Source: Azolla caroliniana (Eukaryota > Plantae > Polypodiophyta). From it: DNA of 64,000 nucleotides. The stretch lies in contig JBHGNT010000014.1 of the NCBI GenBank assembly GCA_043228905.1, positions 13,454,001-13,518,000 on the forward strand, given 5' to 3'. Shown here piece by piece: positions 788-64,000 of the stretch; position 1 is the stretch's first letter; the number at the start of each line of letters is the position of its first letter. Position numbers and translations under genes: made by a program. The notes below the pieces were generated by a model. It searched no databases and was not told the DNA's origin. It saw only the letters and a list, made by a program, of their open reading frames with translations.

Positions 788-821
<34 letters not shown>

Positions 822-9538: not shown

Positions 9539-9555
9539 TCACGTTGGGTTCACCA
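9539..9555 (-). promoter_or_regulatory. Primer binding site complementary to the tRNA-Trp 3' end
   Basis: Minus strand TGGTGAACCCAACGTGA, 8 nt from the LTR; same motif at 22064-22080. Confidence 0.75.
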
Positions 9556-9563
9556 CTTAATTA

Positions 9564-15106: not shown

Positions 15107-15112
15107 TTATGC

Positions 15113-20568: not shown

Positions 20569-21330
20569 AAGCAAAGGGGTGCTGAAAATGATGATGTCAA
20601 AGGCAAGGATGTTGATGACGGTAACTCTAGAAGCAAGGACGGTGATATGATGGTAACTCTAGAAGCAAGAGTGATGACGAAGACAGGTGATGCTTCCAAT
20701 TGGAAGGAATTCAAGGATGTTACAAGTATTTATACAATTTCTGAGATTGAATATCTCTAGAATATACTCGAGAAATATCTCGAGAATATACCCACCTAGA
20801 ATACACCACAAAATAATTCTAGAATATTCTCGAATGTACTATACACTAGACTCTACAATATATACAAGTTCATAATCAAATGTGGATAGTTCACAAGAGT
20901 TTCCATATGGTTAACCCAACACCATGTACTGTGTATTAAAAGTCAGAGGTTCGAGTCTAGAATGTGATAGTTTGGATATCACTTATGGGACCCTAACACA
21001 CGTACTATGGTTAGAAGTAGTGATGTTGTTTTTTATGAGAACAAAATGCATAAATAGTCCGTAGAGGAGGTAGAAGTGAGAAAGGTTGTGTTTAAAGATA
21101 TTATGCCTTTAGTTGATGTAAAACAAAAAAATCTTATTGATGTAGATGCTTCTACATGTGGGCAATCATGAAAAATTGTTGTTGGTCAGTATGATGATGC
21201 CCAAAATGATGATGCTCAGCACAATGATGGGCAAAATGATGATTTTCAGCAAGAATATGCTCAGAATGATGTTTCTCATGCACAACCTGATGGTATTCAG
21301 GTTCAGGAAACATTGAGGAGATCCACGCGT

Positions 21331-24300
21331 TGTCGTAGTGTATTTTGTACACTACGTGAAAAACGTATATAGTATTAGATTCAATAAAAAATGAAGAAAT
21401 AGAAGAAAATAGCAAAATAAATGGAACATGCATAGGGCAAGATTCGAACCTTGCACCTCCATGTTAATAATGTAATGTCTTACCATTACACTAGCATTTC
21501 ATTAGTGTTAAAGCATAGATGTCCCACATAGAAAGGTAAATTCACGCTAGGATAAACATTAGAAAAACGCATAACAAAAGAAAAAGCTACACATACACAT
21601 CTAGCGTGCATGATAAAAAACGCACAAGTTAGAAAAAAAGCATGATCACTTTAGATAAAGCATATAGTCTATCTATAGGAAAAGCATGGGGTCTATAGTT
21701 AGAGAAAAAGCATGGATTACTAAGACTTCCTCATCACTACATAAGGATGGGAGCACAATGTAATTGTGTGTGAAAAATATTTGGAAACTGGATATGTTTC
21801 TAAAAAACACCAATTAATAAACTATACTCGTGGGATTCACGAGAATTCTATATCATTCTCTTTCAACCGAAGTTTATATTCTTATATTCATATTGATTAA
21901 TCTAATACAATACACTCGTGGGATTCACGAGTTTGCTATAACTCTTTCTTACAACATATTTATATTCTTATTAGCCTTAAAACTCTCTTCTTCCTAGTCC
22001 AAAACCCCAGTGGTTCCCACCCGACTCACGCAAACGATCCGGAGCCGAAAGGCACGACACAGTTGGTGAACCCGACGTGAAGGCGGGTGGCAAGGAGATG
22101 GAGAATCAACAAGAGGCGATGAACATGATGATGATAATGTTTGAGCGGATGCAACAAGAACAACGTGCGATGTCGGAGATGAAGGCGGCAGTAGAGCGGC
22201 TTCTGCGACGAAACGGGGAATTCAACGGTAAGGGTGTGTCACGCTACCTACGTGAATATAAGGCGGAGATGATGCAATATCGGATACCGGAAGGATTGCA
22301 AGTGATATCCTTTAGTCGGGTGGCCTCGGACGAACTACAAGAGAGAATCCACAAGATACAACAACAAAACTCGACATGGGAGTCCTTTGAAGAAGCTTTA
22401 CGGGAGGCATATGACTATGAGAGATGGACGGGACGAGATCGACGAGAATTCGACGAATGGGTGGCGTCGGAGAAGACTCACCGAAGTGCAACGCAAGCGT
22501 TCCTAGAGTTCGAGCATCGTTTTGCTCGACTCTCGGAGCGGGAACGAAGATTGGTGGGAGGAGATAAAGTCTTAATGTTCGTAAGATCGATCGATCAGAA
22601 AGAAAGGATGGACATTGGGATCGAACTCGAAGATGATGACGGTGCGAACGGCCTTACCGAGGATTGGGCTAAAGTCGAAAGGGTATGCCGAAGACATGAT
22701 GAAAGGAAGCTGAGAATCTCGTCAACAACGACATGGCCCATGAAGGATGGTCGATTGAGGAAAAACGATGAAGCCAATATGAAGGCCGAAATACAACATG
22801 ATGGTACCACGGGAGAAAGAGTGGAACAAGACACCCACTCGTCTTGTGAAAGAACGATGGCGAAGGATAAGGCCGATAATTCAAGTGTAGAAGGAAATTT
22901 CGGGATACAAGTGCCCGAGACATCGGGTCAAAAAGGGGTAAGCATAATAGATGTTTGCATAATTGATGCAGATAAAGAGTGTGAAGCGGATGTGATTAAG
23001 GAGGTAGCCACAAAAGACGAAATCGAATCGGAGGTGGCTATGGACGAATCAATGGCGGATTGCCATATTGAGACTTCCCCACCACTGATTCCAGAGACTC
23101 CGGCGGTTGCGATCGAAAGGCAACGTGAGACCGAAGAGACGGAAGGTGGCGGAGAGAAAATGAATGTCGAAGCCGACGAATACGATGAAGAGATAGCCGA
23201 GAAGAATGCTAAGGGTGAAACTACGAAAGAAGGTAATACCGAGGATTCATGCCAACAATATCTAGAGACTTCGGCGGTTGTGTCCGAGAACCAACGTGAG
23301 ACCGGAGAGACGGGAGATGGCGGCGAGGAAGGTAAAGTCAGAAGTCGGTTCGGATGGAAAATGATCCATCCGAAATTCCAATCTAAAAGAAAGTGCGACA
23401 ATGCGGAGGTCGGGTCTACGACGGGAGAAGCGCGTAATACAGAGCACGCTCTACGGCGAATAAAGAAACGCGTGTTATGGCGAATAAAGAAGCACGCGCT
23501 ACGGCGAGAAAAGAAGCATGCATTACAACCACACGAGGACCGAACAACGAGCACATATCGGAGGACCTACGTAGCGAACAACGGAAAGAAGTGCCGAAAG
23601 TCGAACCGGACAAGGCAGGTGAAAACGAAGAAAAGAAAGCAAATCCGGACGAAAAGAAAAGAAAAGAAACCGACCCGAAAGAGCACTGAATCGGTAAAAA
23701 CCGATCAACCGAGTCCGGATCGACCGAATACAAATCGGAAAGGAAGCCGAACTAAACGAAAGACGATCCGACGAGACCGAATCGGAAGTAAGCTAATCCG
23801 ACTAAACCGAAAATCCGAAAAGAAGTCGAGATTGATGAAGAAAAGAAAGAGGGCAAGAAAAGATACTACCGCGGATGACAAGGACCAAGCGGGCCATGCA
23901 AAAAGCGAACGAAGACTATGGTGGATCGGATGTCGACAATGGTTCGGGTGGAAAGAATGGATGTGCTCCAAATGGAGAGACAAAGTCAACATAACAAGAG
24001 AAGTCGAGGGTACTACGAGCCGGCAACGAAACCAATCGGGTAGAGACCGGACGGAGGAGACTAACAAACACCAACAACTTCGGCACATACCGGAGGATGT
24101 GCGGGTTTGGAGGGGGTGAGTGTCGTAGTGTATTTTGTACACTACGTGAAAAACGTATATAGTATTAGATTCAATAAAAAATGAAGAAATAGAAGAAAAT
24201 AGCAAAATAAATGGAACATGCATAGGGCAAGATTCGAACCTTGCACCTCCATGTTAATAATGTAATGTCTTACCATTACACTAGCATTTCATTAGTGTTA

Positions 24301-24849
24301 AAGCATAGATGTCCCACATAGAAAGGTAAATTCACGCTAGGATAAACATTAGAAAAACGCATAACAAAAGAAAAAGCTACACATACACATCTAGCGTGCA
24401 TGATAAAAAACGCACAAGTTAGAAAAAAAGCATGATCACTTTAGATAAAGCATATAGTCTATCTATAGGAAAAGCATGGGGTCTATAGTTAGAGAAAAAG
24501 CATGGATTACTAAGACTTCCTCATCACTACATAAGGATGGGAGCACAATGTAATTGTGTGTGAAAAATATTTGGAAACTGGATATGTTTCTAAAAAACAC
24601 CAATTAATAAACTATACTCGTGGGATTCACGAGAATTCTATATCATTCTCTTTCAACCGAAGTTTATATTCTTATATTCATATTGATTAATCTAATACAA
24701 TACACTCGTGGGATTCACGAGTTTGCTATAACTCTTTCTTACAACATATTTATATTCTTATTAGCCTTAAAACTCTCTTCTTCCTAGTCCAAAACCCCAG
24801 TGGTTCCCACCCGACTCACGCAAACGATCCGGAGCCGAAAGGCACGACA
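21331..24849 (+). mobile_element. Young non-autonomous gag-only (TR-GAG-like) Gypsy LTR element
   Basis: 729-bp LTRs at 21331-22059 and 24121-24849 with no difference seen by eye; 4-bp TSD GCGT; tRNA-Trp PBS 22064-22080; PPT at ~24109-24120. Confidence 0.93.
22098..24119 (+). CDS. Gag-like capsid domain followed by an acidic region and a long Arg/Lys-rich tail (~673 aa from the first ATG)
   Basis: Uninterrupted ORF; N-terminus (GEFNGKGVSRYLREY...DKVLMFVRSID) resembles the gag at 9502-8985 (GQFDGRNITKFLDAY...DKTLYFLKAVD); no pol motifs. Confidence 0.8.
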   Translation: MENQQEAMNMMMIMFERMQQEQRAMSEMKAAVERLLRRNGEFNGKGVSRYLREYKAEMMQYRIPEGLQVISFSRVASDELQERIHKIQQQNSTWESFEEALREAYDYERWTGRDRREFDEWVASEKTHRSATQAFLEFEHRFARLSERERRLVGGDKVLMFVRSIDQKERMDIGIELEDDDGANGLTEDWAKVERVCRRHDERKLRISSTTTWPMKDGRLRKNDEANMKAEIQHDGTTGERVEQDTHSSCERTMAKDKADNSSVEGNFGIQVPETSGQKGVSIIDVCIIDADKECEADVIKEVATKDEIESEVAMDESMADCHIETSPPLIPETPAVAIERQRETEETEGGGEKMNVEADEYDEEIAEKNAKGETTKEGNTEDSCQQYLETSAVVSENQRETGETGDGGEEGKVRSRFGWKMIHPKFQSKRKCDNAEVGSTTGEARNTEHALRRIKKRVLWRIKKHALRREKKHALQPHEDRTTSTYRRTYVANNGKKCRKSNRTRQVKTKKRKQIRTKRKEKKPTRKSTESVKTDQPSPDRPNTNRKGSRTKRKTIRRDRIGSKLIRLNRKSEKKSRLMKKRKRARKDTTADDKDQAGHAKSERRLWWIGCRQWFGWKEWMCSKWRDKVNITREVEGTTSRQRNQSGRDRTEETNKHQQLRHIPEDVRVWRG

Positions 24850-27700: not shown

Positions 27701-28130
27701 AGACATACAGGTTATTCTTCGCAAGGCAAAAAGAGATCTTCTTCTTCTGTTTACAAAAAATTGACTTTTGAAATAGATTTAAATGGCTATATCCTATGTC
27801 CTTGAATTCTCTTTGTTCTGAATCAAGATGTTTGCCATGTCTTCACTTGATCATGAGAACCTTCAAATAAATCTCTGCATTTCTTTAATGCCATGACATT
27901 AGATTCAGGACAATCTTTTTCCTCACTCTCTCATATACTTCCGTCGCATGTAGTTCCTCGACTTCTTCTTCGAGGGGGTCGGTTGTAGGGTATGCCAAGT
28001 GTCGATGGGTGGGGAGTGGAGCCATTCTATTATCATTTATGCCTATGTTGGCGTTATATATGGAGTACATGAGGGTCACAATCCAAGAAAATATAAGGAG
28101 TCTGGAGACATGTAGGGTAGTTACATACCC

Positions 28131-28346
28131 TTCTAACAACTTACACCCACTTTACAACACTCTTTTATTTTTGCACACAAATGTGCATGTGTTTATGCAG
28201 ATATGAATATATTCATACTCACTTTTGTGTACACTTGCACATACACTTACAACATGACCTTTCATACAAAGACTTTACACTTATCTATCCACATACCATC
28301 ACACTTATAAACTCATTTATGTACAATCCTACGTATAACACATATG
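28131..28346 (+). repeat. CA-rich dispersed repeat, copy 2
   Basis: Matches 15113-15339. Confidence 0.85.
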
Positions 28347-29099
28347 AACATGTGTGAACCTCACTCATGGTAACAAAAGCAAGATACAATTTGAGCAAGA
28401 CTCAGCAACAACTCGGCAAGATGAATTAAAGGATGAAATTACCGTTATGCAATATTGACTCAACATCGGGGAACAAAAGATTCAGGCAATCTTAGGCAGA
28501 TACAAGCAAAAAATGCACCAAAAAATTATCGAGTCTTTGGAAAATGGATGGAAGATTTGGTCGACTCAAGCACCATAACTACAACTATTTCGAGCGGACC
28601 AAGAGAACAGGAAAAAGGAAGGCCACGGTTCATACAAGATGGATGAGACTAGCATGACAATCGTTCGGGATGAATTGTCGGAAGATTTCTACGAGTTGAC
28701 AACCTGACATACAACTGAGATAACCAAAATGCTCGAGGAATACGATGACAATCAATTACAACTAGCCCTTGAACTTGAGTCCTACGAAAAGAATCGACTT
28801 CAAGAGGACGGTAAATAAATGGAAACTGAAGTCGGAGAAGGGAGGACAAAGCAACAAGCAGAGGAAGATGATACCTTCGAAGAAGCCGAGCAGATAGGGC
28901 AGAAGTAGGAGCAAGCTGAGCAAGCACCAGATTAGGAGGATACTAAGGAAGAGCAGTCACACGATGAGCAATACAACGAGCCTAGGATAGAGCAAGTAGT
29001 ATAGTCAGAGGACCTACAACATACGGGCACAAAGGAAGATAATTGTTCAGAATCGACTTTGCAAGCCAAGCAACTACAAGAGACGGTAGATATCTCTTA

Positions 29100-29745
29100 T
29101 TTCACTAGATGCCACTATGGAATGTAAAGGTCCATGTAGCTCTTTCTCTCTCTTTCTGTAATTAGCTTACCCTAATGGTAAGTTGTTACACTATTAGCAC
29201 TATGTCTTGGGTTCAAAACCCAATTTCTCACCTCTCTATTACTCCATATATATATCTCTCAATTTTACTAGAGATGCCACTATGGAATGTAGGGGTTGAA
29301 CACATGACCACCTAATCTCCATTGGGCAACCTTACCAACTGAGCTACATCCATGTGGGCTCTCTCTCTCTCTCTCTCTCTGTAATTAGCTTACCTTAGTG
29401 GTAAGTTGTTACACTATTAACACTATGTCTTGGGTTCGAAACCCAATTTCTCACCTCTCTATTACTCCATATATATCTCTCAATTTTACTAGAGATGCCA
29501 TTGTGGAATGTAGGGGTTGAACCCATGACCACCTCGTCTCCACTCACTGGGCAACCTTACTAACTGAGCTACATCCATCTAGGCTCTCTTATTTTATCAT
29601 AATTACCTTACCCTAGTGGTAAGTTGTTAGCACTATAAGCATTGCGTTGTGGGTTCGAAACCCAACTTGCTCACATCTCTATTATATACTTCTTATATAT
29701 CTCTTAATTCACTAGATGCCATTGGGGAATGTAGGGGTTGAATTC
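29100..29745. repeat. Tandem array (~3 x 220 bp) of units with two convergent tRNA-like A/B-box modules (SINE-like)
   Basis: Plus strand CCCTAGTGGTAAG...GGGTTCGAAACCC and minus strand TAGCTCAGTTGGTAAG...GGTTCAACCCC; further copy at 40425-40592. Confidence 0.75.
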
Positions 29746-38944: not shown

Positions 38945-40424
38945 TTTTAAGTAACATGGGGATTAGTCAAGGATGTCGATTATCACCTACACTCTTTGGT
39001 TTATGCATTGATAAACCCTAAACCCTGGTTAATATGGTTGCAAGAGAAGACGGATTAGATGCCCCAAAACTAATGCAACAATTTATCTTATTGCTTTTAT
39101 ATGCAGATGACGTGGTTATATTTTCATATGATGTTGATGGTATGCAACGTTTACTTGGAGCATTAGAAGCATTTTGCCATAGTAGTGGACTAACTGTAAA
39201 TTTGGATAAAACAAAATGGTGGTAGTGTGAACCATCCACCCTCACCAATACCCTATGCTTACATATAAGGGAGAACATGTACAATTTGTACAAAGCTTTA
39301 AGTATCTTGGTATTGATGTACCTGCCATGAATTAAATGGAGTGTATGCTTTGAGTCTAAACTTCAAGTTCGTTGGAAAAGTTATTATACGTTGGAAAATA
39401 AATGTAACCAAAGTGATAGTCATGGATGGGAAGTGAAACTAATGTTATTTAATGCCATGGTAACACAAGTTTTGCTTTATGAAGTAGAAATGTGGGGAGG
39501 CTCTATCTCTCTTAATGCATGGAATGAGGTTGAGAAGATTCAAAAGATGTTTTTAAGGAGACAACTAGGAGTAAAATCCACCTATCAAGTTATCTCTTGG
39601 AAACTGGGAGTTTGCCCAATAGAGATATTGGCACTATAGAGAGGATATTAAAAAAGTCAAGAAAATACAAATCATACATTACCATATCTTGCTGGGAATG
39701 TTGAATGTAGACTACAAAAGAATCACAAGAGCAAAATTCTCTCATCCGGTTGGGTTGTTGACATCAAAAAATGGTTCAAAAGATGGGATGTGTAACATCG
39801 CTTAGAGCTTTCAAGTGATGTTATGAAATATGTAGTTATTGAGGAAAGGTTAATGGACCCACTAAGGAAGAAGTGGAAAGATGTAAAAGGACAAAATTAG
39901 GTTATTATATTGCAAATAATCAATCCCGAATGTTGGGTTCTATATAAGGCAAGAAGGCCTATTGATCGTATTCAACCTTACCTCATTACTAACATGAGTA
40001 TTAACTCTCGTAGAACCCTAACACTCCTTCACACTCGATCACATAACCTAGGTATTGAAGTTGCATTATGGAATCAAAATCAGCCAAATATAAAGACATG
40101 TAAGGTATGCAAGGAAGGGCTAGTAGAGGATGATTATCACTTGCTTTTTACATGCTCTGCATATAGTGCAATTTGTGAAAGCTATGATGATATATTGAGA
40201 GGGGGCGATGACTTAAGTATCATGTACTAAAGAGAACATCTAGAAGGTTGAGCTCATATGTGTATGCCTTATTTGCTCATCGAGACTTGGTGCTTCAAAG
40301 TATGAATATCTCTTCTTAGGAAGAAGACACACATCAAGATAACTTTTGTACTTACGTCCTATGGGTCAATATTGGCTTCTCTATGGATGCTGAAAATAAA
40401 CAAATAAACAAATATCAATCAATC
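38945..40424 (+). mobile_element. 5'-truncated RTE LINE (3' half of RT to the tail)
   Basis: LLYADD, VNLDKTK, FKYLG, RSHNLGIE, CKVC...EDDYHLLFTC; tail of AATAAAC/CAAT repeats. Confidence 0.85.
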
Positions 40425-40592
40425 GTAATTAGCTTACATGTTACACTACTAGAACTACATCTTGGGTTCAAAACCCAATTTTCTCACCTCTCTATTACTC
40501 CATAGATGTCTCTTATTTCATTAGATGCTATCGTGGAATTGTAGGGGTTGAACCCATGACCATCTAGTCTCCATTGGGCAACTTTACCATCG
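40425..40592. repeat. Single degenerate copy of the convergent tRNA-like unit
   Basis: Matches the units at 29158-29745. Confidence 0.75.
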
Positions 40593-40629
40593 GCCCAATG
40601 AAGCTAAGTGTCACCTAACTATCTCCCAT

Positions 40630-46271: not shown

Positions 46272-46673
46272 TGGATTCCGCAAACCACGCACACTACGCA
46301 ATAATGCGTGGATTTCGCAACCACGCAACGAAGCCGCGAAGAGCCGATCCACCGCGCAAAGCCGCGAAGAAAGACGCAAGCCGTGTCGTGATATGGCAAG
46401 ACTCGAACCCATGACCTTAGGTTATATGGATCGAGCTCTTGACCATTAGATCATCTATTGTAATACGTAAGATATTATTTTCATTTACATTTTATTATAG
46501 GAAATTAGTGTATATTCCAGATTTCTCTGGAACATTCTAGAAGCTTCAGGATTACTCCTGAAAACACTATAAAAGAGGGCACTAGGCATTATATTGAACC
46601 AAATTGGTTCAACGCCAGTCTTAAGCCTTTTAGCCACCATTGTATATTCTCTTCATATAATACATATCTTTCT

Positions 46674-46723
<50 letters not shown>

Positions 46724-48027
46724 CTCGCTCACTTCTTTCTTCTCTCGAAGAAGTTCCACACCTCTCATAGTACTAATCCTTCGTTTAGTACTAATTCCTT
46801 CTCTGTCTCAGTACTGTTCCTGATAGTTTGAACCAATTTTTCCTACCTTCTGTCTCTCTCATTTCCTACTAATCTTTTATTCCTCTTTTCTTTCATCCCA
46901 TGGTCACTGTTAGTGCTGAAGAATATCAATCTGTTTTCTCGGAATTTCAATGCTTGAAGGAGAAGTTCCATGCTTTGGAACAAGAAAACCAACGGTTGCT
47001 GGGGGATCTTCAACAAATCTCCTTAGAAAAGCAGCAAACGCAACAACAACATGGGGAACTTGCGTTACGCGTGCAACAACTCGAAGCAACCATCGTAGTG
47101 ATGCAACAACAAGGGCCCGGAACACAAGGGATTCATAAAGAACCCAAGATTGGCCTTCCCATGAAGTTCAATGGAACGCGATCGCAGTTTAGAGGGTTCC
47201 TTAACCAGGTACGATTAGTTATTCAAATGCATCCTTCCCGATATCCCACCGATGCATCACGAGTGGGTTTAGTAGGCACTTTGTTAAGTGGCTCAACGTT
47301 GTCATGGTTCGCTCCACTATTAGAAAAGGAATCTCCGTTACTCAACAATTTTGAAGAGTTTCTAGGTGAGTTTAAAGCATGTTTCGGAGATACTGATAGC
47401 ATCAGGACCGCAATCAACAAAATCCGGCGATTACGCCAAGGTGACCGTCCAGCCTCCGCATACGCTGCAGATTTTCGCCTACTCGCTGTCGTGACTCTTG
47501 AGTAGGAAGCAGAGAGAGAGCGATGGCGATAGAGATAACGATAACGATAGAGATGGCGAGAGCGGTAGAGATAGCGATAGTGATAGCAAAAGAGAGTGAA
47601 AAAGGGAGAGAGTGCGAGAGAGAGAAAAGTATAAGTGAGAGATAAGAAATGGGAATGAGATTATATTATGAGAAAGAAGATTACAAGGAGTAGGCTAAGG
47701 GCTAAAGACTGGTGTTGAACCGAATGAGTTGTGATGAGTGTATGGACTCTTATTTATAGGCCCTTATGGAGTATTCTAGAATGTTCTAGAATATTTTAGA
47801 TATTTATGAATAATAATAATAATAAATATAATCATGAAATATTCAAGAACATTCTAGAATAATCTAGAATGTTCTAAATATCTCGTAATAACTAAACATA
47901 TAATTATTATGATTACATCTCACATATGTTATTACAATGGTTAAAGTACAATATGTAAACCAAGAGGTTATGGGTTCGATTCCTGGTTCGCCAAGATGAA
48001 TGTCATGATAAGCCAAGATGTATGTCT

Positions 48028-51000
48028 TCATGACATTATCCCCCCTTTTCGATGACGAGTTGCACGAGTCGGAAGAAAAGAGTTCAGACTTGGTTTATGA
48101 GGATATTGGTTGTGAAATGCAACAACCATGTCGGAGGCATTGGCAAGATGTTCGGCAGGCTCCCATGTTCGATCATTAGGTGTATAGCCTAACCAATCAA
48201 CCAAGTAGTATAGTTTGTTGCGAATGATCTTGGAGTCGAGGATAGCGGCAACCTCATATTCAGAGCCATTGGAAACGTCAATTGGAGGTGGGGGAGGTGT
48301 AACACGACCCGGAATAGAGCTCGTTGTGTAGGGCTCCAAAAGTGAAACATGGAAGACCGGGTGAAGACGCATATGAGGAGGAAGATCAAGACGAAATGTC
48401 ACATCATTGATCTTACCACTTATGACATATGGGCCAAAACGTTGATAATCCAATTTGTAGCAAGGTCGGGTCGTTTTAATGCTACCTTGTAAGAGCCATA
48501 CACGATCGCCTACTTGAAATGTAGTCGATGAATCACGCCGATGACGGTCAGCAATCTTCTTTTGAGTGTTTTGGGCTTCACATAAATGATGCAAAAGCAT
48601 ATCCTGAACTTCTTGGAGTCGAGTGAGCCGATCTTCAGCAGCTGGGTTTTTTGGGAGTTCAGGATGTTCAAGCATCGTCCAACGAGGATGGTACCCAATG
48701 TTTGCAAAAAATGGGGAATATCCAGTAGAAGAATGCTCGGAGTTGTTATAAGCAAATTCTGCCAAAGGTAGTAAATCCACCCAATCATCTTGTTGATAAT
48801 TGACAAAACAACGTAGATATTGCTCGACTGTTTGGTTGGTGCGCTCACTCTGCCCATTAGTCTCTGGATGGTAGCCGGAAGAGAGTTTACAAGAAGTATG
48901 TAAGAGTTTGAACATGTGCCGCCAAAATTTCGAGATGAATTGGGGACCCCGATCACTGATAATATCATCCGGAAGACCATGATGGCGAAACACCTCCCGC
49001 ATGAGTAAATCAGTTGTCTCTTGACTAGTAATGGTCTTTGTGCATGGAAGGAAATGTGCCATCTTCGTAAAACGATCGACAACCGTGAGAATCGAATCAA
49101 ATCCCTTGGAAGGTGGAAGATCCGTAATAAAGTCCAAGGAAATAGATTTCCATGGGCTCTCCGGAATAGGCATTGGCTGTAATAAGCCATATGGATGATG
49201 TCGAGGCTTTTTTGATCGGCAACATGTATCACAGCTACGAACATAATCCGTAACAAAATGGCGAAGCCGTGGCCACCAATATCGGCGAGAAATCAACTCA
49301 AAAGTCTTGTGGATGCCGAAGTGTCCCGCCATTGGTGTGTCATGACATTGTTGCATGACTTTGAGTCGAGAAGGACCGTCAGGCACATACAAGAGAGTTT
49401 GTCGAAAAAGTAACCCATCATGCCAACTAAACTGGGTGTAGTCTAGACGAGGATTTTGAGTTTGGGAGCTAGATGCACGATTTGGGATAATATGGCTCAA
49501 AACCTCTTGGGCGAACGCATCAGTCGCAATCTGCTCACGAATGGAATCAAGAAGCCTTGAATCTCCCGGTGTGTTGATGGTATGCATTGCCATTATTCGT
49601 AGACGATCAGGACCTAAGAGGATTTGCTTTTGGCTTTCAAATGCGGCCTCTCCAGGTTGAAGTTCCATATACGAACGTCTAGATAAAGCATCTGCTTTTC
49701 CTTGTTGCATCCCAGGGCGATATAGAATTACAAAATCGAAACGAGTTAAGAACTGCGCCCAACGAGCTTGTCGTCGATTCAAGACTCGAGCACTTTGAAA
49801 GTATGTTAGATTTTTATGATCATTGTAGACAATAATCTGTTGAGAAGAACCCTCCAGAAAATGACGCCATTGTTGAAAAGAATCCACAATGGCAAGAAGC
49901 TCTTTGTCGTGAATCTCATAGTTGATTTCTGCGGCTTCAAATTTTCGTGAGTGAAAAGCCACCGGGTGCAGTTCACCATCATCACCAATTTGGGATAGTA
50001 CACTTCCGAGTGCGAAATCCGATGCATCAGCTTCAAGTATAAAGCGCCTCATTGGATCGACATGGATTAAGATTGGTGCGGATGTAAATGCTTGCTTTAA
50101 ACCCTCAAATGCAGAGTTCACATCTATACTCCATACAAATGGTCGATTCTTGTGCGTCAGTTGAGTGAGGGGCAACACAATTTTTGAATAATCTTTGATG
50201 AACTTGCGATAAAAGTTTGCGAACCCCAAAAAACATTGCACATCTCGCACGGACTGTGGTGTTTGCCAATCCAAAATTGTTCGAACCTTTGATGGATCCA
50301 TAGAGATGCCATTTGAAGAGACTATGTACCCCAAAAACTCCACTTGACATTGGTCGAAACTACACTTCTCCAATTTTGCATAGAGACCATACTCTCGTAG
50401 CCGTTGCAAAACTTGGCGAACATGTATATCATGTTCTTCTTGAGTTTTTGAGTAGATCAAGATATCATCCAGGTAAACAATGATGAAGATATCGAGGAAG
50501 TCTCGAAAAATATCATTCGCCATATGTTGGAAGACTGCTGGTGCATTCGTGAGGCCAAAAGGCATCACTGTGTACTCAAAATGACCATAGCGAGTGCGGA
50601 ACGCCGTCTTCCATTCATCCCCAGGACGAATTCGAACAAGGTTGTAGGCACCTCGAAGATCTAACTTCGTGAAATACTTTGCTTCACTGAGGCGTTCTAG
50701 AAGGCTTGAGATCAATGGGAGAGCATATCGGTTTCTAACGGTCACTTTATTCAAGCCTCGATAATCCACGACCATACGAAGCGTACCATCTTTCTTCTTA
50801 ACGAAAAAGATGGGTGCACCAGCAGGAGATTTTGAATGTTGGATAAAACCATTTGCCAAGTTCTCATTGATATATTCTCGAAGAACCTCTAACTCCGTGG
50901 GCGAAAGATTATAAATTGGTCCCCATGGAGGCTCTTTTCCTGGCTGCAAATCAATTGGGCAATCATATGGTCGATGCTCTGGTAGTCTATTAGCCTTCAC

Positions 51001-51672
51001 CTTATCGAACACATCGGAGAATTCTATGTACTTCTTTGGTAGTTGGACCCCCAATTCTTGTGAGCTAGATGAGGGAGTTGCTAAAACCGCAAATACCATC
51101 ATGTCTTCCTTTCTTCCATCCTCTCGTAATTGATGTATAGAGATTGTTGAAATTGTGGGGGATCCTAGATCCTTAGTTGGAGCTTCAAGAGACTTGGATT
51201 GTACGGTGACCTCTTCAATAGTTCTTTTTCTCCAATCAATGGTTGGGTTATGTAACTCAAACCAAGGAAGACCAAGAACTAGAGAGTGCTCCGGACTACT
51301 AATGATGTTAAATGAGATGACACTAGCCAAATTACCTAGGACTACACGAATTGGTTCAGACTCTTCGACTATATCTCCTGATGCTATAGGGCGACCATCG
51401 ATGACTCCTACAGCTACTGGGTTTGGGAGTTTTTTCAAGATGATGTTTTGAGTCAATGCAAACTCGCGATCCATGAAACAAGAATTGGCTCCGGAATCTA
51501 GGAGGGCAGAGGCTAGGGCGCGATGACCTGTAGATGTGCTAAGCTCGACTTGTGCAGAAAAAACTCTACTAACTTGATTTGATGAAATGGAACCACAACT
51601 AGGTACTGACTCTACATAACTAGGATGGTCCAACCAAATGGCTCCTATTTTGGCCGGACTTATTCGTTTAAC
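48028..51672 (-). CDS. pol: Pol of chromovirus C (PR-RT-RH-INT-chromodomain), probably entered by -1 frameshift
   Basis: Open frame of more than 1200 aa with LLDSGA, YLDD, ADASD, HHCC, D-D-E, GPY and chromodomain motifs; overlaps the gag end in the -1 frame. Confidence 0.95.
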   Translation of the reverse strand, partial: VKRISPAKIGAIWLDHPSYVESVPSCGSISSNQVSRVFSAQVELSTSTGHRALASALLDSGANSCFMDREFALTQNIILKKLPNPVAVGVIDGRPIASGDIVEESEPIRVVLGNLASVISFNIISSPEHSLVLGLPWFELHNPTIDWRKRTIEEVTVQSKSLEAPTKDLGSPTISTISIHQLREDGRKEDMMVFAVLATPSSSSQELGVQLPKKYIEFSDVFDKVKANRLPEHRPYDCPIDLQPGKEPPWGPIYNLSPTELEVLREYINENLANGFIQHSKSPAGAPIFFVKKKDGTLRMVVDYRGLNKVTVRNRYALPLISSLLERLSEAKYFTKLDLRGAYNLVRIRPGDEWKTAFRTRYGHFEYTVMPFGLTNAPAVFQHMANDIFRDFLDIFIIVYLDDILIYSKTQEEHDIHVRQVLQRLREYGLYAKLEKCSFDQCQVEFLGYIVSSNGISMDPSKVRTILDWQTPQSVRDVQCFLGFANFYRKFIKDYSKIVLPLTQLTHKNRPFVWSIDVNSAFEGLKQAFTSAPILIHVDPMRRFILEADASDFALGSVLSQIGDDGELHPVAFHSRKFEAAEINYEIHDKELLAIVDSFQQWRHFLEGSSQQIIVYNDHKNLTYFQSARVLNRRQARWAQFLTRFDFVILYRPGMQQGKADALSRRSYMELQPGEAAFESQKQILLGPDRLRIMAMHTINTPGDSRLLDSIREQIATDAFAQEVLSHIIPNRASSSQTQNPRLDYTQFSWHDGLLFRQTLLYVPDGPSRLKVMQQCHDTPMAGHFGIHKTFELISRRYWWPRLRHFVTDYVRSCDTCCRSKKPRHHPYGLLQPMPIPESPWKSISLDFITDLPPSKGFDSILTVVDRFTKMAHFLPCTKTITSQETTDLLMREVFRHHGLPDDIISDRGPQFISKFWRHMFKLLHTSCKLSSGYHPETNGQSERTNQTVEQYLRCFVNYQQDDWVDLLPLAEFAYNNSEHSSTGYSPFFANIGYHPRWTMLEHPELPKNPAAEDRLTRLQEVQDMLLHHLCEAQNTQKKIADRHRRDSSTTFQVGDRVWLLQGSIKTTRPCYKLDYQRFGPYVISGKINDVTFRLDLPPHMRLHPVFHVSLLEPYTTSSIPGRVTPPPPPIDVSNGSEYEVAAILDSKIIRNKLYYLVDWLGYTPNDRTWEPAEHLANASDMVVAFHNQYPHKPSLNSFLPTRATRHRKGGIMS

Positions 51673-52787
51673 ACATCCTCTAATTGGCTCAAGACATCAA
51701 ATCTATTCTCATGGCATGGGCTATTAGGCTTAGTACTTAAGTTATTAGAAGTGATAGTAGAACTTGATGTAGGGTTGTCATGTGCACTTACTTGGTAAAC
51801 TTGACGCCTGGGTTTATGTGGACAATTCACAGCTATATGTCCTGGACCACCACAGTAGAGGCATAGGCGATGCGCCCGACGTCGTTGTTTCTCAGCATCT
51901 GATAAGGGCCCTCGACGTTGTGTCGACTCTATTTCCATCGGAGTGGGACCATCCCTCGTAACGGGTCTAGAACCTTGTGGCGGTGTGGCGACTATAGAAG
52001 CGTATGTCTGTTCCGGTTGGCGGCGTAACATTTGTTGACGTTCAGAACGTCGCTCAAATAGGCGATTATCACATCGCACAGCTCGGCTAATAGCTTCAGT
52101 AAGAGACTTTGGATCTTCATGGAAAGTAAGAAGAAGATCTTTGACATCGTTACGCAAACCCTGACGGAATTGATCCATTAAGGCTGCCTCATCCCAAGGG
52201 ATGTCGCATGCCAAGAGACGGAAATCTGCGGCATAAGCTGAAGCGGGACGATCTCCTTGTCGGAGTCTTCGAATCTTGTTTATTGCAGTCCTAGTGCTAT
52301 CCGTATCTCCAAAACTAGCTTGAAACTCCTTAACGAATGCCTCGAAATCCTCCAGTAATGGTGATTTCTTCTCAAGAAGTGGTGCAAACCATGCTAACGC
52401 TGTACCGCTTAGCAAGGTTCCTATTAATCCCACACGGGCAGCATCAGTTGGATACCGATTGGGATGTAACTGAATCACCAAACAAACTTGATTCAGGAAA
52501 CCTCGAAAGAGAGATCTGGTACCATCAAACTTGGCAGGGAGGCTAATCTTTGGTTCCCTTGGGGAGTTTTGAACCCCCGCCGCTTGTTCTCGTAATGTTA
52601 ATATAGTAGCCTCAAGTTGATGAACCCGTTGTGATAACTCCTCATATTGATGAGCTTTCTCAGTACTGACTTGTTGAAGATCCCCGAGTAGCCTTTGATT
52701 TTCTTGCTCTAATGCCACAAACTTAGTGGTGAGCATATCGAGCTCCGAAAGGACACACATATACTCTTGCTTGCTGACCGACTCCAT
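51660..52787 (-). CDS. gag: Gag of chromovirus C (coiled coil, capsid, CCHC knuckle)
   Basis: 375-aa ORF; LRQG, PMEI and CLYCGGPGHIAVNC motifs. Confidence 0.95.
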   Translation of the reverse strand: MESVSKQEYMCVLSELDMLTTKFVALEQENQRLLGDLQQVSTEKAHQYEELSQRVHQLEATILTLREQAAGVQNSPREPKISLPAKFDGTRSLFRGFLNQVCLVIQLHPNRYPTDAARVGLIGTLLSGTALAWFAPLLEKKSPLLEDFEAFVKEFQASFGDTDSTRTAINKIRRLRQGDRPASAYAADFRLLACDIPWDEAALMDQFRQGLRNDVKDLLLTFHEDPKSLTEAISRAVRCDNRLFERRSERQQMLRRQPEQTYASIVATPPQGSRPVTRDGPTPMEIESTQRRGPLSDAEKQRRRAHRLCLYCGGPGHIAVNCPHKPRRQVYQVSAHDNPTSSSTITSNNLSTKPNSPCHENRFDVLSQLEDVLNE

Positions 52788-53978
52788 AACCGCGGGGGAA
52801 AAAGAAAGAAGGATAAAGAAGAAAGCTTGCTAGGGTTATTGGAGAAAGGGAAAAGAAATATTCGGTTCAAACTGTCGTGACTCTTGAGTAGGAAGCAGAG
52901 AGAGAGCGATGGCGATAGAGATAACGATAACGATAGAGATGGCGAGAGCGGTAGAGATAGCGATAGTGATAGCAAAAGAGAGTGAAAAAGGGAGAGAGTG
53001 CGAGAGAGAGAAAAGTATAAGTGAGAGATAAGAAATGGGAATGAGATTATATTATGAGAAAGAAGATTACAAGGAGTAGGCTAAGGGCTAAAGACTGGTG
53101 TTGAACCGAATGAGTTGTGATGAGTGTATGGACTCTTATTTATAGGCCCTTATGGAGTATTCTAGAATGTTCTAGAATATTTTAGATATTTATGAATAAT
53201 AATAATAATAAATATAATCATGAAATATTCAAGAACATTCTAGAATAATCTAGAATGTTCTAAATATCTCGTAATAACTAAACATATAATTATTATGATT
53301 ACATCTCACATATGTTATTACAATGGTTAAAGTACAATATGTAAACCAAGAGGTTATGGGTTCGATTCCTGGTTCGCCAAGATGAATGTCATGATAAGCC
53401 AAGATGTATGTCTTCATGACACTCGCCGCCGATATCCCTTGGGATGATCAAGCGTTGATGGAGCAATTCCGTTATGGTTTACGCAACGACGTCAAGGATT
53501 TAATCTTGACCTTCCCCGAAGAGCCAAAGTCCTTCACAGAAGCAATCAGTCGCGCGGTGAGATGTGACAACCGCCTCTTTGAGCGACGTTCGGAACGACA
53601 ACTACAGATGCCGAGGGCAAGATCAGAGCCCACCTACGCCTCAGTGGTAGCAAGACCTTTTCCGAGGGAGTCATATAATGCGCCTCTAGCGAATACTCCG
53701 ACTCCGATGGAGATTGACACTACACGTCGTCGAGGGCCATTATCCGAAGAAGAAAAGCAACGACGCCGTACAAATCGACTATGTCTTTACTGTGGTGGAC
53801 CAGGACATATCGCAATAAATTGCCCCCATAGGCCAAGAAGACAGGTAAACCAAATAGTCGCTAGTTCTAATTGTACTAAACCCGAGCCTATTTCAGTAGG
53901 GATATCTGATAGTCCTAATAGTACTAATATCCCAGATCTAGCAAACAAATTTGATGTCCTTAGTCAGTTAGAAGAAGA

Positions 53979-56900
53979 GTTAAACGACTAAGTCCAGCCA
54001 AAATAGGAGCCGTTTGGTTGGACAGCCCTAGATCTGTGCAGCCCATTAGTGGTTCCATTCCCTCTAAGCAAGTTAGTGATGTGTTCGTAGCCCAAGTAAT
54101 AGTTAGTACTAAAAGTACCCCTCCAGTACATGTCCTAGCAGTCCTAGATTCCGGAGCTAACTCTTGCTTTATGGATAAGAAATTTTCTCAAGCTCATAAG
54201 ATATCCCTAAGAAAACTCCAGTGTCCAGCCTCTGTAGTAGTCATTGATGGACGTCCCATTGCTTCCGGAAATATCATAGAAGAGTCAGAGCCCATTAATA
54301 TTGTCCTAGATAACTTAGCATGTGTAGTATCATTTAATATTATTAGTATCCCAGAACATCCTATAGTTAAATAGGATTACCGTGGTTCGAGTTACATAAC
54401 ACAAACATAGATTGGAGAACAAGAGAAATACAGTGTCGACAAACCCAAGGGTCAACTCAGAAGATGGAAACCATTTCGCTACGTCAGTTGCGTAAAGAAG
54501 GGCGCAAGGAGGAAATGTTTCTCTTTGCAATATCAGTAAACCCCTCCAGCACCACTAAAGAAGAATCCACCGTTCAACTTCCCGAGAAGTATCGTCATTA
54601 CGCCGATGTGTTCGATAAAGTACAAGCCAACACACTTCCTCATCATCGACCGTACGATTTCCCCATCGATTTACAACCGGGAAAAGAGCCGCCATGGGGA
54701 CCGATCTACAATTTGTCACCAACCGAGTTGGAAGTCCTTCGGGCCTATATAGAGGAGAATTTGGAAAATGGTTTCATTCGGCATTCGAAATCTCCAGCCG
54801 GCGCGCCCATTTTCTTCGTCAAGAAAAAAGATGGATCGCTTCGTCTCGTTGTAGATTACCGTGGCTTGAATAAGCTTACAATCAGGAATAGGTATGCTCT
54901 TCCCCTTATCTCAAGTCTTTTAGAACGGATCAATGGTGCCAGGTTCTTCACGAAGATCGACTTACGGGGAGCATATAACCTCGTACGGATCCGACCAGGA
55001 GACGAATGGAAGACCGCGTTTCGCACCAGATATGGGCACTTCGAGTATACGGTCATGCCGTTCGGCCTCACTAATGCGCCGACAGTCTTCCAGCACATGG
55101 CTAATGATATATTCCGAGATCTATTGGATGATTTTTTGATCATCTATTTGGATGATCTACTGGTTTATTCAAAGACCCAAGCAGAACATGATTCTCATGT
55201 ACTATTAGTACTAAAACGACTTCGAGAACATGGTCTGTATGCAAAGCTGGAAAAATGTAGTTTTGGGTGCAACCAAGTGGAATTTCTCGGCTACATCATT
55301 TCGTCAGAAGGCATCTCCATGGACCCAGCTAAGGTCAAAACGGTGGTGGAATGACCGACTTCGCGTTCGGTGCGGGATGTGCAATGCTTCTTAGGCTTTG
55401 CCATTTTTTACCGGAAGTTCATACAAGATTACTCAAAGATCGTTCTACCTCTCACACAACTTAGCAGGAAGGGACAACCATTCATCTGGTCTGAAGAAAT
55501 GGACATGGCTTTCGAGAGTCTTAAAAAGGCATTTACATCGGCTCCAATTCTAGCTCATGTCGATCTGGAAAAACCATTCAATATCGAAGCTGACGCATCG
55601 GATTTTGCATTGGGGAGCATTCTGTCACAACAGGGGAATGATGAGAAGCTACATCCTGTGGCTTTTCACTCATGCAAGTTTGACGCCGCCGAAATCAACT
55701 ACGAAATTCATGATAAAGAGCTATTGGCAATAGTGGATTCTTTTATGCAATGGAGGCATTTTCTGGAGGGATCCTCTCATCTAGTCACCGTATTTAGTGA
55801 CCACAAGAATCTTGCCTACTTTCAGGATGCTCGTGTGGTGAATCGACGTCAAGCTCGGTGGGCCCACTTCCTCACGCGTTTCGACTTCAAAATTACATAT
55901 CGTCCGGGGAGGCACCAAGGGAAGGCAGATGCATTATCACGGCGTTCGTATCTAGCACCCCGTCCCGGCGAGCCAGCTTTCGATAACCAAAAACAAGTCA
56001 TCTTGGGACCGGCACGACTACAAGCAACACAAATCTTTGACATGCCTATGGATTCCCGCGTTATCGATACCATACGTGAAGACTTGAAGACAGATGCATT
56101 CGCCCAAGCTATACTAGCACAAATTGATCCCTCTCGAGCGTCGTGTTCACAGTCGCAACCACCAGGTATGGACTATCGGCAATTCAAATACCATGATGGA
56201 TTACTCTTCTTTAAAGAACTTTTGTATGTTCCTAATGGTTCTTGCCGCCTTCAAGTAGTACAAAATTGTCATGACACATATACAACTGGGCATTTTGGTA
56301 GTACTAAAACATTACATTTAGTACAACGAACATTCTGGTGGCCCTGTATGCGACAATTTGTCGAGGATTTTGTTTGGACTTGTGATACATGTTGTAGAGC
56401 GAAAATGCCAATGCATCATCCATATGGTTTATTAGAACCATTACCAATTCCAAGCAAGCCGTGGCAATCCATTGCTCTAGACTTCATCACAGATCTTCCA
56501 GTCTCTAAGGGGTTCAATGCAATTCTAACGGTGGTCGATCGATATACGAAGATGGCTTATTTCTTGCCATGTACTAAGGAGATCTCCAGTGAAGACACGG
56601 CCGAAATTGTCATGCATGAAGTATGTCGGCATCATGGACTTCCCGATAGTATCATCAGCGACTGTGGACCCCAGTTCGTGTCAAAATTCTGGAAGCACCT
56701 TTTTAACATGCTCAAGGTCACTTGTAACCTCTCCTCCGGCTACCACCCACAAACCGACGGCCAAGCTGAACGAACAAATCAAACGCTGGAGCAGTATCTG
56801 CGGTGCTTTCTCAGCTATCATCAAGATGACTGGGCAGATATTCTCCACTTCGCCGAATTTGCCTATAACAACTCTATCCACGCATCCACTAAAGTTACGC

Positions 56901-57577
56901 CATTTTATGCTTATACGGGATGTCACCCCCGGTGGAGTGTACTTGAAACCCCAGAGGTTTCCACAAATCCATGCGCGGAGGATCGTTTGGAGCAGTTACG
57001 CAAGATACAAGCGGATTTATCTACTCATCTCCAGCAAGCTCAACAAACACACAAGGTCTACGCGGATCGTCATCGACTTCGATCCAGTTTTAATATTGGA
57101 GATCGGGTGTGGCTGCTACGACGACACATCAAGACTACTCGTCCATGTGAGAAGTTAGATTATCGGCGATTAGGTCCTTTCCGTATTATTGGACAGATTA
57201 ATGATGTCGCTTTTCGTCTCGATCTACCTCCTCAACTTCGGATACATCCGGTGTTTCATAGTTCTCTCCTCGAACCCTACCACGAGAGCACCATCCCAGG
57301 ACGTCTTATCCAACCTCCACCCCCGATCGAGCTTGAAGTTGGGCCGGAGTACGAGGTTGCCGCCATCCTTGATTCCAAGATTGTTCGCAACAAGCTCTAC
57401 TATCTAGTCGATTGGCTAGGCTATAGGCCCAGCGAACGTACTTGGGAACCGATTGAGAATGTGACCAATGCTCGTGCTCTTCTTGAAGACTTCCATCGTC
57501 AATATCCACACAAACCAGGTCCTCAATCCAAGAGGACTCGTGACACTCTTCGTTTTAAAGGGGGGATAGTGTCATGA
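53979..57577 (+). pseudogene. pol: Pol of chromovirus B, disrupted
   Basis: ORFs 54018-54374, 54464-55354 and 55370-57577. Confidence 0.93.
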
Positions 57578-57864
57578 TATGGCAAGACTTGAACCCATGA
57601 CCTTAGGTTATATGGATCGAGCTCTTGACCATTAGATCATCTATTGTAATACGTAGGATATTATTTTCATTTACATTTTATTATAGGAAATTAGTGTATA
57701 TTCCAGATTTCTCTGGAACATTCTAGAAGCTTCAGGATTACTCCTGAAAACACTATAAAAGAGGGCACTAGGCATTATATTGAACCAAATTGGTTCAACG
57801 CCAGTCTTAAGCCTTTTAGCCACCATTGTATATTCTCTTCATATAATACATATCTTTCTTATCA

Positions 57865-57908
<44 letters not shown>

Positions 57909-58471
57909 CATCTCGCTCACTTCTTCCTTCTCTCGAAGAAGTTCCACACCTCTCATAGTACTAATCCTTCGTTTAGTACTAATTCCTTCTCTGTCTCAGT
58001 ACTGTTCTTGACAAGCCGAAGCACAGACTTCGCAACTACGCACAACGCAAGCTGGAGCACGGATTCCGCAACTCCGCATAAAGCGAGTCGATGCGGACTC
58101 CGTAACGCGAGTCGAAGCGGATTTCGGATACCATCTGAAACCGACCCGACTTGAGCTTGAGGGGGCGTGTTGAGAATCAAGCTCAAATTGGTCTAGTGTG
58201 TGAACTCACCTTGAGAGTGAATAGACACTCCAACGGTCAAGAGTCACCATTATGTCACCACTTTGTATTCTAGCATTTAGTGTGAGTCATAGAATCATAT
58301 TCTATGACACATAACTTATAAGCTTTCACATTCCCCATGCTCCATGAGTCTTGTAGTTAATGAAGAGAGAGGGTGACTACATAAAGCACCCTCCTCCCAC
58401 CTTGTATAATGTTGAGTCTTTCTCCTTTGTCAATATACTTTTACCTTGCGTATTCTCTGTGTTTCACTCAC

Positions 58472-62492: not shown

Positions 62493-64000
62493 TGTCGTGT
62501 TATTACGCAAGTGCGTGTGGAAACGAGGCGGGACCGCGGGGGTCTCGAACCAAAGAGCAAGCGAGGGAGGAGAAAGAGAGAGAACCGGCTACGCAGGACC
62601 GGGGATACACAGGGACACGGCCCTTCAGCACGGAGAACGCGAACGAACACCGACACAGACAGATGCGAATGACTAAATATATATATCAAGAATGGCTAAC
62701 ACGACTACAACCCTCGATGGGGCACAGGTTGGTTACAACCGAACAGGCCGGCGAACAGATGCCGATGCCTGTTCGCTTCAACGCACAAAGGGGTTGCCGG
62801 TCGGAGGTGCTGCCGGAAGCACTCGGGCGTTCCTCGAAACAGCGCAAGCCTCCTCGGAACCCTGCACAGAAAAGCTATGGAGCTCAAGAAGGAAGGAAAC
62901 AGAGGGCGAAGCGTCCAGAAACGGTCCGACAACACTTCGTCCTCTCCACGCGAGATCCCCCTGCAATAGCTCTTTCCTGCTCCTTATATAGGCCGACGAG
63001 CAGGCCGTCACGTCAGCTTTATTCCCTGTCCCTTTTGGACAGGGATTCGCTTCGTCCTTCACGCATCCGCGTAGTTACGCCGCCGACTCGTACAGTTCCT
63101 TCGCTTGCGCGCGCGACCGAAAAGACTGTTCGCGCGGTCTTTGTCTCCACTCGTGTTAGGGCCCGTTCCCGCCGATTATCCTCCTAATTCGCTTCTATGT
63201 ACAACTCGGAGCGTGCGCGCGTGAAGAACCGGTTCCCACGCCTTGGTGCGCCGATTCCGCCTATGGACGGTTTTCTTCACGACATCCGCCCCCACCTAAC
63301 CGTGCATCCTCCGGTATGCACCAAGAGAGTTGGGACGGAGAAAACCGGCCCGTCTTCATTTCTTCGCCCGTCGGTTCTTCCTCGTTTTCGGATCTTTCGT
63401 CACTGCTGACTAGGAGAGCTGGGTCTGGCTCGTCGTCGTGTCGCTTCTTGAACGCTTTGATCCGCTTCCCTGCAACCGGTATCGCCATTCTCGTGCCGTC
63501 TAGTTCCGCCAGGTGATATGTTCCGTTGTCATTGGCGCTCCGCACCACGTAAGGCCCGAACCACCTTTGTGCGAACTTCCGTGTAGCTCGGTGCTGGTTG
63601 TCGAGGCTGCTGTCGTAGACGAGCACCCAGTCACCTTCGTCGATTTTCTTCGGTCGTAGCCGGTGCGTTCGGTCGAACCGGGCTTTGTTCTTTGTCCTCG
63701 CCACCCGGAGCTTCTCCGTAGCCAGTGCCACGTCCTCCGGTCTCCGCTCGAGCTGTCGTATACGTGCGGCCAACAACTCCTCCCGGCTCATCTCGTCCCT
63801 CCAGTCGACCGTTGCCCACGAGGAGATCGTCCGTTCAATCGGCATGATCGGCTTCTGGCCGAACATGAGCTCCGTCGGCATGTACCCGGTTACCGAACTG
63901 TGCGTGGTCCGGTCTGCCCACAAAGCATAAGGTAGCAGCCGCGGCCAGTTACCGACTCGGCCTCCGCATGCCCGAATCAACGCCTTGACGATCGGTCCGT
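62493..64000 (-). mobile_element. 3' end of non-chromovirus Gypsy element E: 3' LTR 62493-63284, PPT, integrase C-terminus
   Basis: TGTCGTG...CACGACA termini; minus-strand PPT AGGTGGGGGCGGA; open ORF with WPRLLPYALWADRTT and WFGPY, no chromodomain. Confidence 0.92.

Follow-up and report, generated by a model that had tools for sequence, protein, structure and literature searches.

Antisense tRNA-like A-box/B-box modules in the U3 of Gypsy LTRs, a candidate Pol III promoter placed upstream of the Pol II TATA

tRNA-derived promoters have been described in the LTRs of the Helenus TRIMs (TRIMp3; Kojima 2024, PMC10886601). Helenus is the closest known case to the modules described here, and it was missed in the original prediction, which had named Cassandra. 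In Helenus the tRNA-derived sequence lies inside the LTRs, is conserved around boxes A and B and is mostly non-functional as a tRNA, and the insertion of a SINE into an LTR has been proposed as its origin (PMC10886601). The same source, whose analysis covers TRIMs only, states that "not a few LTRs" in Repbase contain part of a tRNA, and argues that autonomous partners need Pol II promoters. Helenus elements, however, are non-autonomous (311-1263 bp), and in three LTRs of the supplement, including the Selaginella family, the module is in sense orientation and is thought to make the element's own RNA. On the contrary, the modules of the window (i.e., the whole stretch of 64 kb that was analysed) lie in antisense, ahead of a Pol II TATA, and protein-coding elements are among their carriers: element C is 5.9 kb long with a gag and a pol frame, and elements B and D encode RT/RNase H.

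Three other systems are comparable in part. Cassandra TRIMs are non-autonomous elements with a 5S-derived promoter, which drives their own transcript, and with a terminator in the 3′ LTR (PMC10886601), whereas the window modules are tRNA-derived, antisense and have no conserved terminator. At tRNA genes and ETC sites, A/B boxes recruit TFIIIC and a role as barrier or nucleosome-free placeholder has been proposed, the known cases being host loci in yeast and mammals and ETC having a B box without TFIIIB (PMC12409998). The window modules differ in that the A box and the upstream AT zone are kept and that they are carried inside a transposon. Finally, in the bipartite primer-binding site of Ty3, also a Gypsy element, a U3 sequence is complementary to the T and D arms of a tRNA (PMC5371799). 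Ty3 is primed by a tRNA and its U3 matches its own primer; by contrast, Tcn1-type carriers self-prime, and conservation in the window modules follows the promoter boxes at their native gene spacing.

In the literature search, no antisense tRNA-type module was described for the LTRs of autonomous plant Gypsy elements, although subscription papers, Repbase entries and bioRxiv supplements may mention one. Term searches within the text available from PMC2864245, PMC6317226, PMC7466625, PMC13578239, 10.1101/827881 and 10.64898/2026.03.01.708851 found no such module named. What seems to be new is the form of this apparent capture of a Pol III promoter by LTR elements, namely in antisense and within autonomous Gypsy LTRs.

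Carrier elements and distribution of the module

The window is a nest of LTR retrotransposons, in which elements A-D are Gypsy of the chromovirus type. The carriers which could be delimited are the following:

46384-58013, plus strand: element B, a Tcn1-type chromovirus with a 5-bp target duplication, LTRs identical at 434/445 positions and element C nested in its gag
47487-53421, minus strand: element C, with identical 550-bp LTRs and an open pol frame of 1222 aa with chromodomain
683-1123, minus strand: 3′ LTR of element A, which carries a module
21331-24849: gag-only Phygy-type element, with identical 729-bp LTRs and a 4-bp NCGN target duplication (GCGT on both sides)
about 9544-10717, minus strand: LTR of the host Phygy-type Gypsy

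A PF00385 chromodomain is found at the integrase C-terminus of A, B and C, and D ends before its integrase. A self-priming site replaces the tRNA PBS in B, C and D. Behind both Phygy-type 5′ LTRs there is a tRNA-type primer site, which may be of the tRNA-Trp type, and the host Gypsy has its primer-site type and part of gag in common with the gag-only element. The Tcn1 lineage comprises self-priming chromoviruses of mosses and club-mosses (PMC6317226; see also Novikova et al. 2010, PMC2864245), and the moss Phygy lineage non-chromoviruses whose target duplication is 4 bp long (NCGN) and whose primer sites mostly correspond to tRNA-Trp (Neumann et al. 2019, PMC6317226). By these features, elements A-D are classed as Tcn1-type and the gag-only and host elements as Phygy-type, and the host is likely to be a moss.

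The identity of their LTR pairs indicates that both C and the gag-only element are young. The latter, very young, has an open frame of 712 aa which runs from inside the 5′ LTR to the 3′ LTR, has no Pfam match, and belongs to an element with 20 relatives in metagenome assemblies. An old non-coding element at 19206-20981 (minus strand) consists of a pair of diverged LTRs with a purine tract like that of Tcn1 and, internally, repeats of 46 nt in an array; it is probably a miniature Tcn1 derivative with a solo LTR nested inside.

The window was scanned by position weights with a two-box profile (A box and B box at tRNA spacing). The profile was trained on 122 phage and bacterial tRNAs called by ARAGORN, none of them from moss; they are neighbours of the search pattern rather than matches to it and, being unrelated to these LTRs, avoid circularity. 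A set of 122 held-out tRNA loci had a median of 33 bits. Sixteen window sites reached at least 18 bits, whereas 100 block-wise dinucleotide shuffles had 0.07 such sites on average and never more than 1. Of these sites, ten are modules in Gypsy LTRs (20.4-27.3 bits) and the other six belong to a separate repeat (29168-29662 and 40544-40597). The LTR modules, together with two degenerate ones, are:

46399-46453, minus strand: module of the element B 5′ LTR, tRNA positions 8-62, LTR position 16-70, 22.9 bits
46442-46453 and 46399-46409, minus strand: A box and B box, respectively, of this module
57585-57639, minus strand: module of the element B 3′ LTR, 21.2 bits
47930-47983, plus strand: module of the element C 3′ LTR, 26.4 bits
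53316-53369, plus strand: module of the element C 5′ LTR, 26.4 bits
1054-1108, plus strand: module of the element A 3′ LTR, 21.3 bits
19424-19478, minus strand: module of the solo LTR at 19409-19828, 20.7 bits
58769-58822, minus strand: module of the element D 5′ LTR, 25.0 bits, with a TATAAA 36 nt upstream of the A box
21440-21493, minus strand: module of the gag-only element 5′ LTR, 27.3 bits (RF00005, 13.4 bits)
24230-24283, minus strand: module of the gag-only element 3′ LTR, 27.3 bits
10034-10087, plus strand: module of the host Phygy-type Gypsy LTR, 20.4 bits, with distances of 632 nt to the LTR start and 177 nt to the TATA
19996-20064, plus strand: degenerate module, A box lost and B box kept, in an old minus-strand LTR with a Tcn1-like end (RF00005, 21.4 bits)
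20901-20958, plus strand: degenerate module in the other LTR of this old non-coding element, B box 16 bits

An antisense cassette in the U3 of nearly all Gypsy LTRs had been predicted, and among the 13 Gypsy LTRs of the window 10 have full modules, two old ones have the B box only and LTR E has none in its U3. The described sequence was present at every coordinate cited, on the strand opposite to the element, and the gag-only 3′ LTR module (24230-24283), absent from the earlier list, is one more observation of the same kind. All 12 modules are antisense to their carrier and upstream of the Pol II TATA. In the LTRs at about 20000 and 20930, the B boxes score 13 and 16 bits, and the two-box totals are 0.2 and 3.5. 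The predicted absence from the Copia LTRs and from LTR E was borne out, the U3 of LTR E and all five Copia LTR regions scoring below 2 bits in the two-box profile.

LTR E (62493-63285, minus strand) is GC-rich, and the DNA of its integrase region shares about 71% identity with the integrase region at 46-622; on its sense strand, a 15.8-bit match at 62541-62596 is probably due to chance. It represents a Phygy-type family able to lack the module, which is therefore dispensable in at least one family.

The modules might also serve as a mobile target or decoy for elements which integrate upstream of Pol III genes. This seems very improbable, since no insertion of the window lies immediately ahead of a module (the solo LTR comes closest, at 174 nt upstream of the A box at 20003) and being a target brings no obvious benefit to the carrier.

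Outside the window, 63 metagenome loci were taken from a protein-based scan irrespective of the presence of a module. A Tcn1-type 3′ LTR was found behind the integrase in 16 fetched loci, and 15 of these carry the antisense module (15.8-28.1 bits). In the sixteenth (L007) the contig breaks off within the module. One further locus (L021) contains an inserted LTR of the gag-only family with a module of 18.4 bits. These relatives come from one assembly series, which may include the window's own species, and thus they count as extra families and not as independent hosts. In the integrase-end tree of 15 rows, the nine module-bearing rows form one clade (support 100/100) and the six others have no module.

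Among 38 more distant loci, many of whose contigs may end before the LTR, an antisense match of at least 16 bits within 1500 nt behind the protein match occurs in a single case, L050 (1381-1435, minus strand, 23.5 bits), where a TATA follows about 370 nt downstream of the module. The integrase of L050 has relatives with PITA_ names at 60-84% identity, presumably loblolly pine gene ids, and by this similarity L050 is classified as a conifer-type Gypsy. The similar loci L048 and L049 have no module within the available sequence. L050 suggests that the design of the antisense module is not limited to mosses. Regarding the "unrelated lineages" of the original prediction, two lineages (Tcn1-type and Phygy-type) do share it, but beyond them there is just this one conifer-type LTR. 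The two-box scan, the positions and the between-clade identities (see below) all agree with a tRNA-derived module common to a chromovirus and a non-chromovirus lineage.

At L051:195-248 (minus strand), an A/B-box module of 20.6 bits lies in AT-rich DNA upstream of a decayed Tcn1-type pol. Module-pattern scans of viral and prokaryotic collections returned three loci which resemble ordinary prokaryotic tRNA-type sequence, and a second protein scan, of viral contigs, found nothing.

Conservation and structure of the module

Between-clade identity was calculated from 70 pairs of 13 families. The A-box core reached 0.92, the whole A box 0.70, the B box 0.77 and positions 44-48 0.78. The anticodon arm was at 0.36, the upstream flank at 0.37 and the downstream flank at 0.33. 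Accordingly, the boxes are kept while the anticodon arm decays (0.92/0.77 vs. 0.36), as predicted, and they are better kept than the neighboring U3 (0.33-0.37). Length is also nearly constant, positions 8-62 spanning 54-55 nt in 22 of the 23 modules which score at least 15 bits.

The U3 sequences around the modules have diverged much further. Between Phygy-type and Tcn1-type LTRs, the U3 from module to TATA aligns at z of 2.8 at most and the modules at z 2.0-5.5. Between the 729-bp and the about 1175-bp Phygy-type LTRs, the module is the only significant match (E 7e-8). This interval is mostly unalignable between Tcn1 subclades too, with B vs. C reaching a z of about 5. The view that the LTRs are largely unalignable thus stands for Phygy-type vs. 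Tcn1-type, but not for A, B, D and the solo LTR, which form one alignable group (78-98%), nor entirely for B and C, whose U3 are weakly alignable. Likewise, the constant position in U3 that had been predicted does not apply relative to the LTR end, the distance from module to LTR start being 10 to 632 nt (10-53 nt in Tcn1-type LTRs, 110 or 632 nt in the Phygy-type); it is fairly constant relative to the Pol II TATA (114-244 nt).

Variation among copies was examined in assembled contigs of two DNA runs aligned to the B module, with variation of at least 10% counted. None of the 15 A-box-side positions varies, against 17 of the 39 other interior positions (p 0.002), the classes having been set post hoc and the B box lying probably in an edge zone with few variants listed. 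Positions 9-12 vary among family B copies, and the summed contig depth of the two runs peaks over the B box. On these sequence comparisons, the module is real and apparently under selection.

An old SINE-head or tRNA relic, passively carried or kept for the chance binding of a Pol II factor and having no Pol III-related role, is an improbable account of this pattern. It would suit the absence of the module from LTR E, the changes of CpG decay seen in several B boxes and the similar modules which exist outside LTRs in the window (29168-29662 and 40544-40597) and at L051, which show that such heads are common here. Nevertheless, passive carriage leaves unexplained the box identity of 77-92% and the native spacing despite an unalignable U3 and replaced enhancer repeats, and a Pol II factor is not expected to need both boxes together with an upstream AT zone.

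The module is no tRNA gene, and its cloverleaf is lost. ARAGORN called no tRNA in the window and, in 60 fetched loci, one real tRNA-Asp (L008:128-201) and no module; the L008 module, the most tRNA-like one (31.1 bits with the model of this study), was still uncalled. The relaxed RF00005 search that had been suggested does not detect a tRNA gene: against the gathering score of 29, it gave 21.4 bits at best (19996-20064) and 13.4 bits at 21437-21493, and the B module was unmatched at E ≤10. Stem pairing in the 13 families, which exclude L025 because of its 2-nt insertion as well as the conifer-type, old-LTR and repeat modules, did not exceed column shuffles for the acceptor (34/91, p 0.12), the D stem (36/52, p 0.13), the anticodon stem (25/65, p 0.63) or the T stem (42/65, p 0.82). 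With a covariance model built from 69 real tRNAs, the highest ranks went to the repeat-family, 20000 and gag-only modules, and B, C and D reached only 7-8.5 bits (E 1.6-4.8); at E ≤10 there was no match for A, for the solo LTR, for the B 3′ LTR or for the host module. Structure-aware models therefore under-detect the module.

Two cloverleaf-related candidates were also rejected. The trailing CCA of B and C, considered as the 3′ end of a tRNA or as an additional primer site, is 9 nt (B) and 4 nt (C) off the 74-76 register and has no acceptor stem. In 17 Tcn1-type modules, 57% of the cloverleaf cells are paired vs. 54% in shuffles, and the double changes (18 vs. 10.9, reached in 7/500) show a slight excess of a kind that relatedness can produce.

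A different fold, absent from the original prediction, is a Tcn1-specific hairpin over the B box. It bears on the possibility that Pol III makes a short antisense RNA, folded as a rod-like hairpin, which regulates the element, for example as the precursor of small RNAs or through pairing with the genomic RNA at its U3/PPT end. In B, D, L020 and L012, the module folds as a long hairpin (z −4.1, −6.2, −2.8 and −1.5). In 14 Tcn1-type modules, 89 of 112 cells are paired between positions 29-36 and 55-48, with 17 other registers at 26-53%, and the same helix stands at 81.6% when slid registers give 24-46%. Furthermore, G-U pairs outnumber A-C pairs 21 to 3 on the tRNA-sense strand. On the other hand, the 3′ arm is the fixed G/T-rich B box, so that transitions in the 5′ arm keep G-U pairs and wobble pairs persist without selection. 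Covariation is not above column shuffles (159/500 reach the paired percentage), RNAalifold found no consensus structure on either strand, and the helix is at chance (27/64) in the Phygy-type, conifer-type, old-LTR and repeat modules. There is also no conserved terminator, the first T4 being at +0 to +70 nt in the LTR rows and absent within 120 nt for B5, A3 and D5, which argues against a defined RNA product. A regulatory RNA as the function of the module consequently looks improbable. The helix itself is treated here as a real feature of the Tcn1 clade; it would keep alive both this explanation and one based on cDNA.

In the latter, the module on the genomic RNA would be the complement of the D and T arms of a tRNA and would anneal a host tRNA, or a hairpin in the minus-strand cDNA would help plus-strand start near the PPT. 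Annealing of a tRNA predicts the constant antisense orientation in U3, the T and D arms of the Ty3 primer tRNA do pair with U3 (PMC5371799), and the Tcn1-type module lies within 10-53 nt of the LTR start. However, Tcn1-type elements self-prime by a 12-nt complement (PMC6317226) and need no tRNA primer, the Phygy-type module is set back from the LTR start by 110 or 632 nt, and conservation follows the pattern of the boxes, with positions 9-12 variable within family B. A role in reverse transcription is thus given little credence, slightly less than the regulatory RNA.

Promoter anatomy and proposed role

The modules have an A box and a B box at workable spacing, as in a type 2 Pol III promoter. 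In LTR B, they are accompanied by the following features:

46474-46493, minus strand: AT-rich zone (90% AT) 21-40 nt upstream of the A box, the predicted landing zone of TFIIIB/TBP
46529-46548, plus strand: palindromes resembling heat-shock elements, between module and Pol II TATA (from sequence and motif counts)
46568-46575, plus strand: Pol II TATA box, 114 nt from the A box of the module
46601-46612, plus strand: predicted transcript start region, complementary at 12/12 positions to the site behind the LTR
46828-46839, plus strand: self-priming site behind the B 5′ LTR

The TATA and the self-priming site downstream of the module place it in U3. In 20 of the 21 moss-type LTR rows, the 20 nt from −40 to −21 relative to the A box have an AT content of at least 80%, which falls to 40-55% farther out in L008-L012; the gag-only LTR has no AT peak. 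A TATAAA stands at −36 of the A box in D, L008, L010 and L011, i.e., at −29 from tRNA position 1, which is inside the TATA-like range of −34 to −29 of tRNA genes (PMC3082873). A perfect TATAAA occurs within 70 nt in 7 of 28 rows, all in AT-rich DNA. The AT-rich zone at the expected TFIIIB site speaks for a complete Pol III promoter facing outward rather than for a B box alone, although the DNA is generally AT-rich.

The enhancer-like repeats of U3 differ between Tcn1-type families, and the module, the TATA and the self-priming site are retained. In the U3 of B and C there are TTC/GAA palindromes (46529-46548 and 47769-47914), and in that of L008-L012 CATGCA repeats and G-box-like sites. We take these repeats to be heat-shock-like in B and C, and RY-like in L008-L012 and the host.

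The reading preferred here, at slightly less than even odds, is that the module acts as a Pol III promoter which faces outward, upstream of the Pol II TATA, and that the factors bound to it would keep the LTR promoter open in silenced chromatin. By analogy with tRNA genes, TFIIIC would bind the B and A boxes and then load TFIIIB/TBP onto the AT-rich zone, which separates the module from the enhancer repeats specific to each family. On the outer side of the Pol II promoter, the complex would maintain a nucleosome-poor patch or a barrier. A Pol III transcript, if made, would be a by-product extending outward as far as the first chance T-run. The origin could be a tRNA gene or a tRNA-SINE head which entered an ancestral LTR, after which each retrotransposition would have copied the module into both LTRs.

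The barrier step is inferred by analogy with yeast and human tRNA genes and ETC sites, which act as TFIIIC-dependent heterochromatin barriers (PMC12409998). For plants, a review of barriers, in its text available to us, cites barrier activity of tRNA genes/TFIIIC for animals and yeasts only (PMC9540200). A barrier of this kind would suit elements which reside in heterochromatin and yet are transcribed, such as RLG1 of Physcomitrium, a moss chromovirus transcribed though its copies concentrate in heterochromatic islands (PMC7466625). Two features go beyond the promoter model. Yeast TFIIIC tolerates spacings of 32-93 bp (PMC12409998), so the model calls neither for a fixed spacing nor for the retention of positions 44-48, and it does not explain the Tcn1-specific helix over the 5′ half of the B box.

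If the model is true, very abundant moss retrotransposon families have in their LTR a functional Pol III promoter of host type, which serves for something else than producing the element's RNA. It would offer a testable mechanism for the transcription of heterochromatin-resident chromoviruses and a plant test case for chromatin barriers of the tRNA type, and the many TFIIIC sites could shape chromatin genome-wide. Precise gene targeting is possible in Physcomitrium.

A broader proposal is that a tRNA-gene promoter was captured repeatedly by autonomous land-plant Gypsy elements of separate lineages (Tcn1 and Phygy in mosses, and at least one family in conifers) and placed back-to-back with their Pol II promoter, as a portable TFIIIC-dependent anti-silencing boundary. 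From the sequences at hand this is possible but rather doubtful. Were it true, it would explain the continued transcription of elements which land in heterochromatin and would represent a cis-encoded counter-silencing device of transposons, built from the host Pol III machinery, with very many Pol III factor sites scattered through moss heterochromatin.

Some further repeats were observed. A 230-bp AT-rich direct repeat (15112-15339 and 28130-28346) is 85% identical, with internal palindromes and no tRNA-like boxes. In L008, the real tRNA-Asp gene at 128-201 is followed by partial copies of its 5′ end at 425-470 and then by a Tcn1-type pol fragment. The repeat of about 221 bp (29087-29742 and 40420-40600) is a short tandem array with two facing tRNA-like A/B-box modules per unit; six of its modules score 18-24 bits each. 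With no obvious LTR around, it may be SINE-derived or a miniature element, and a possible source of such heads.
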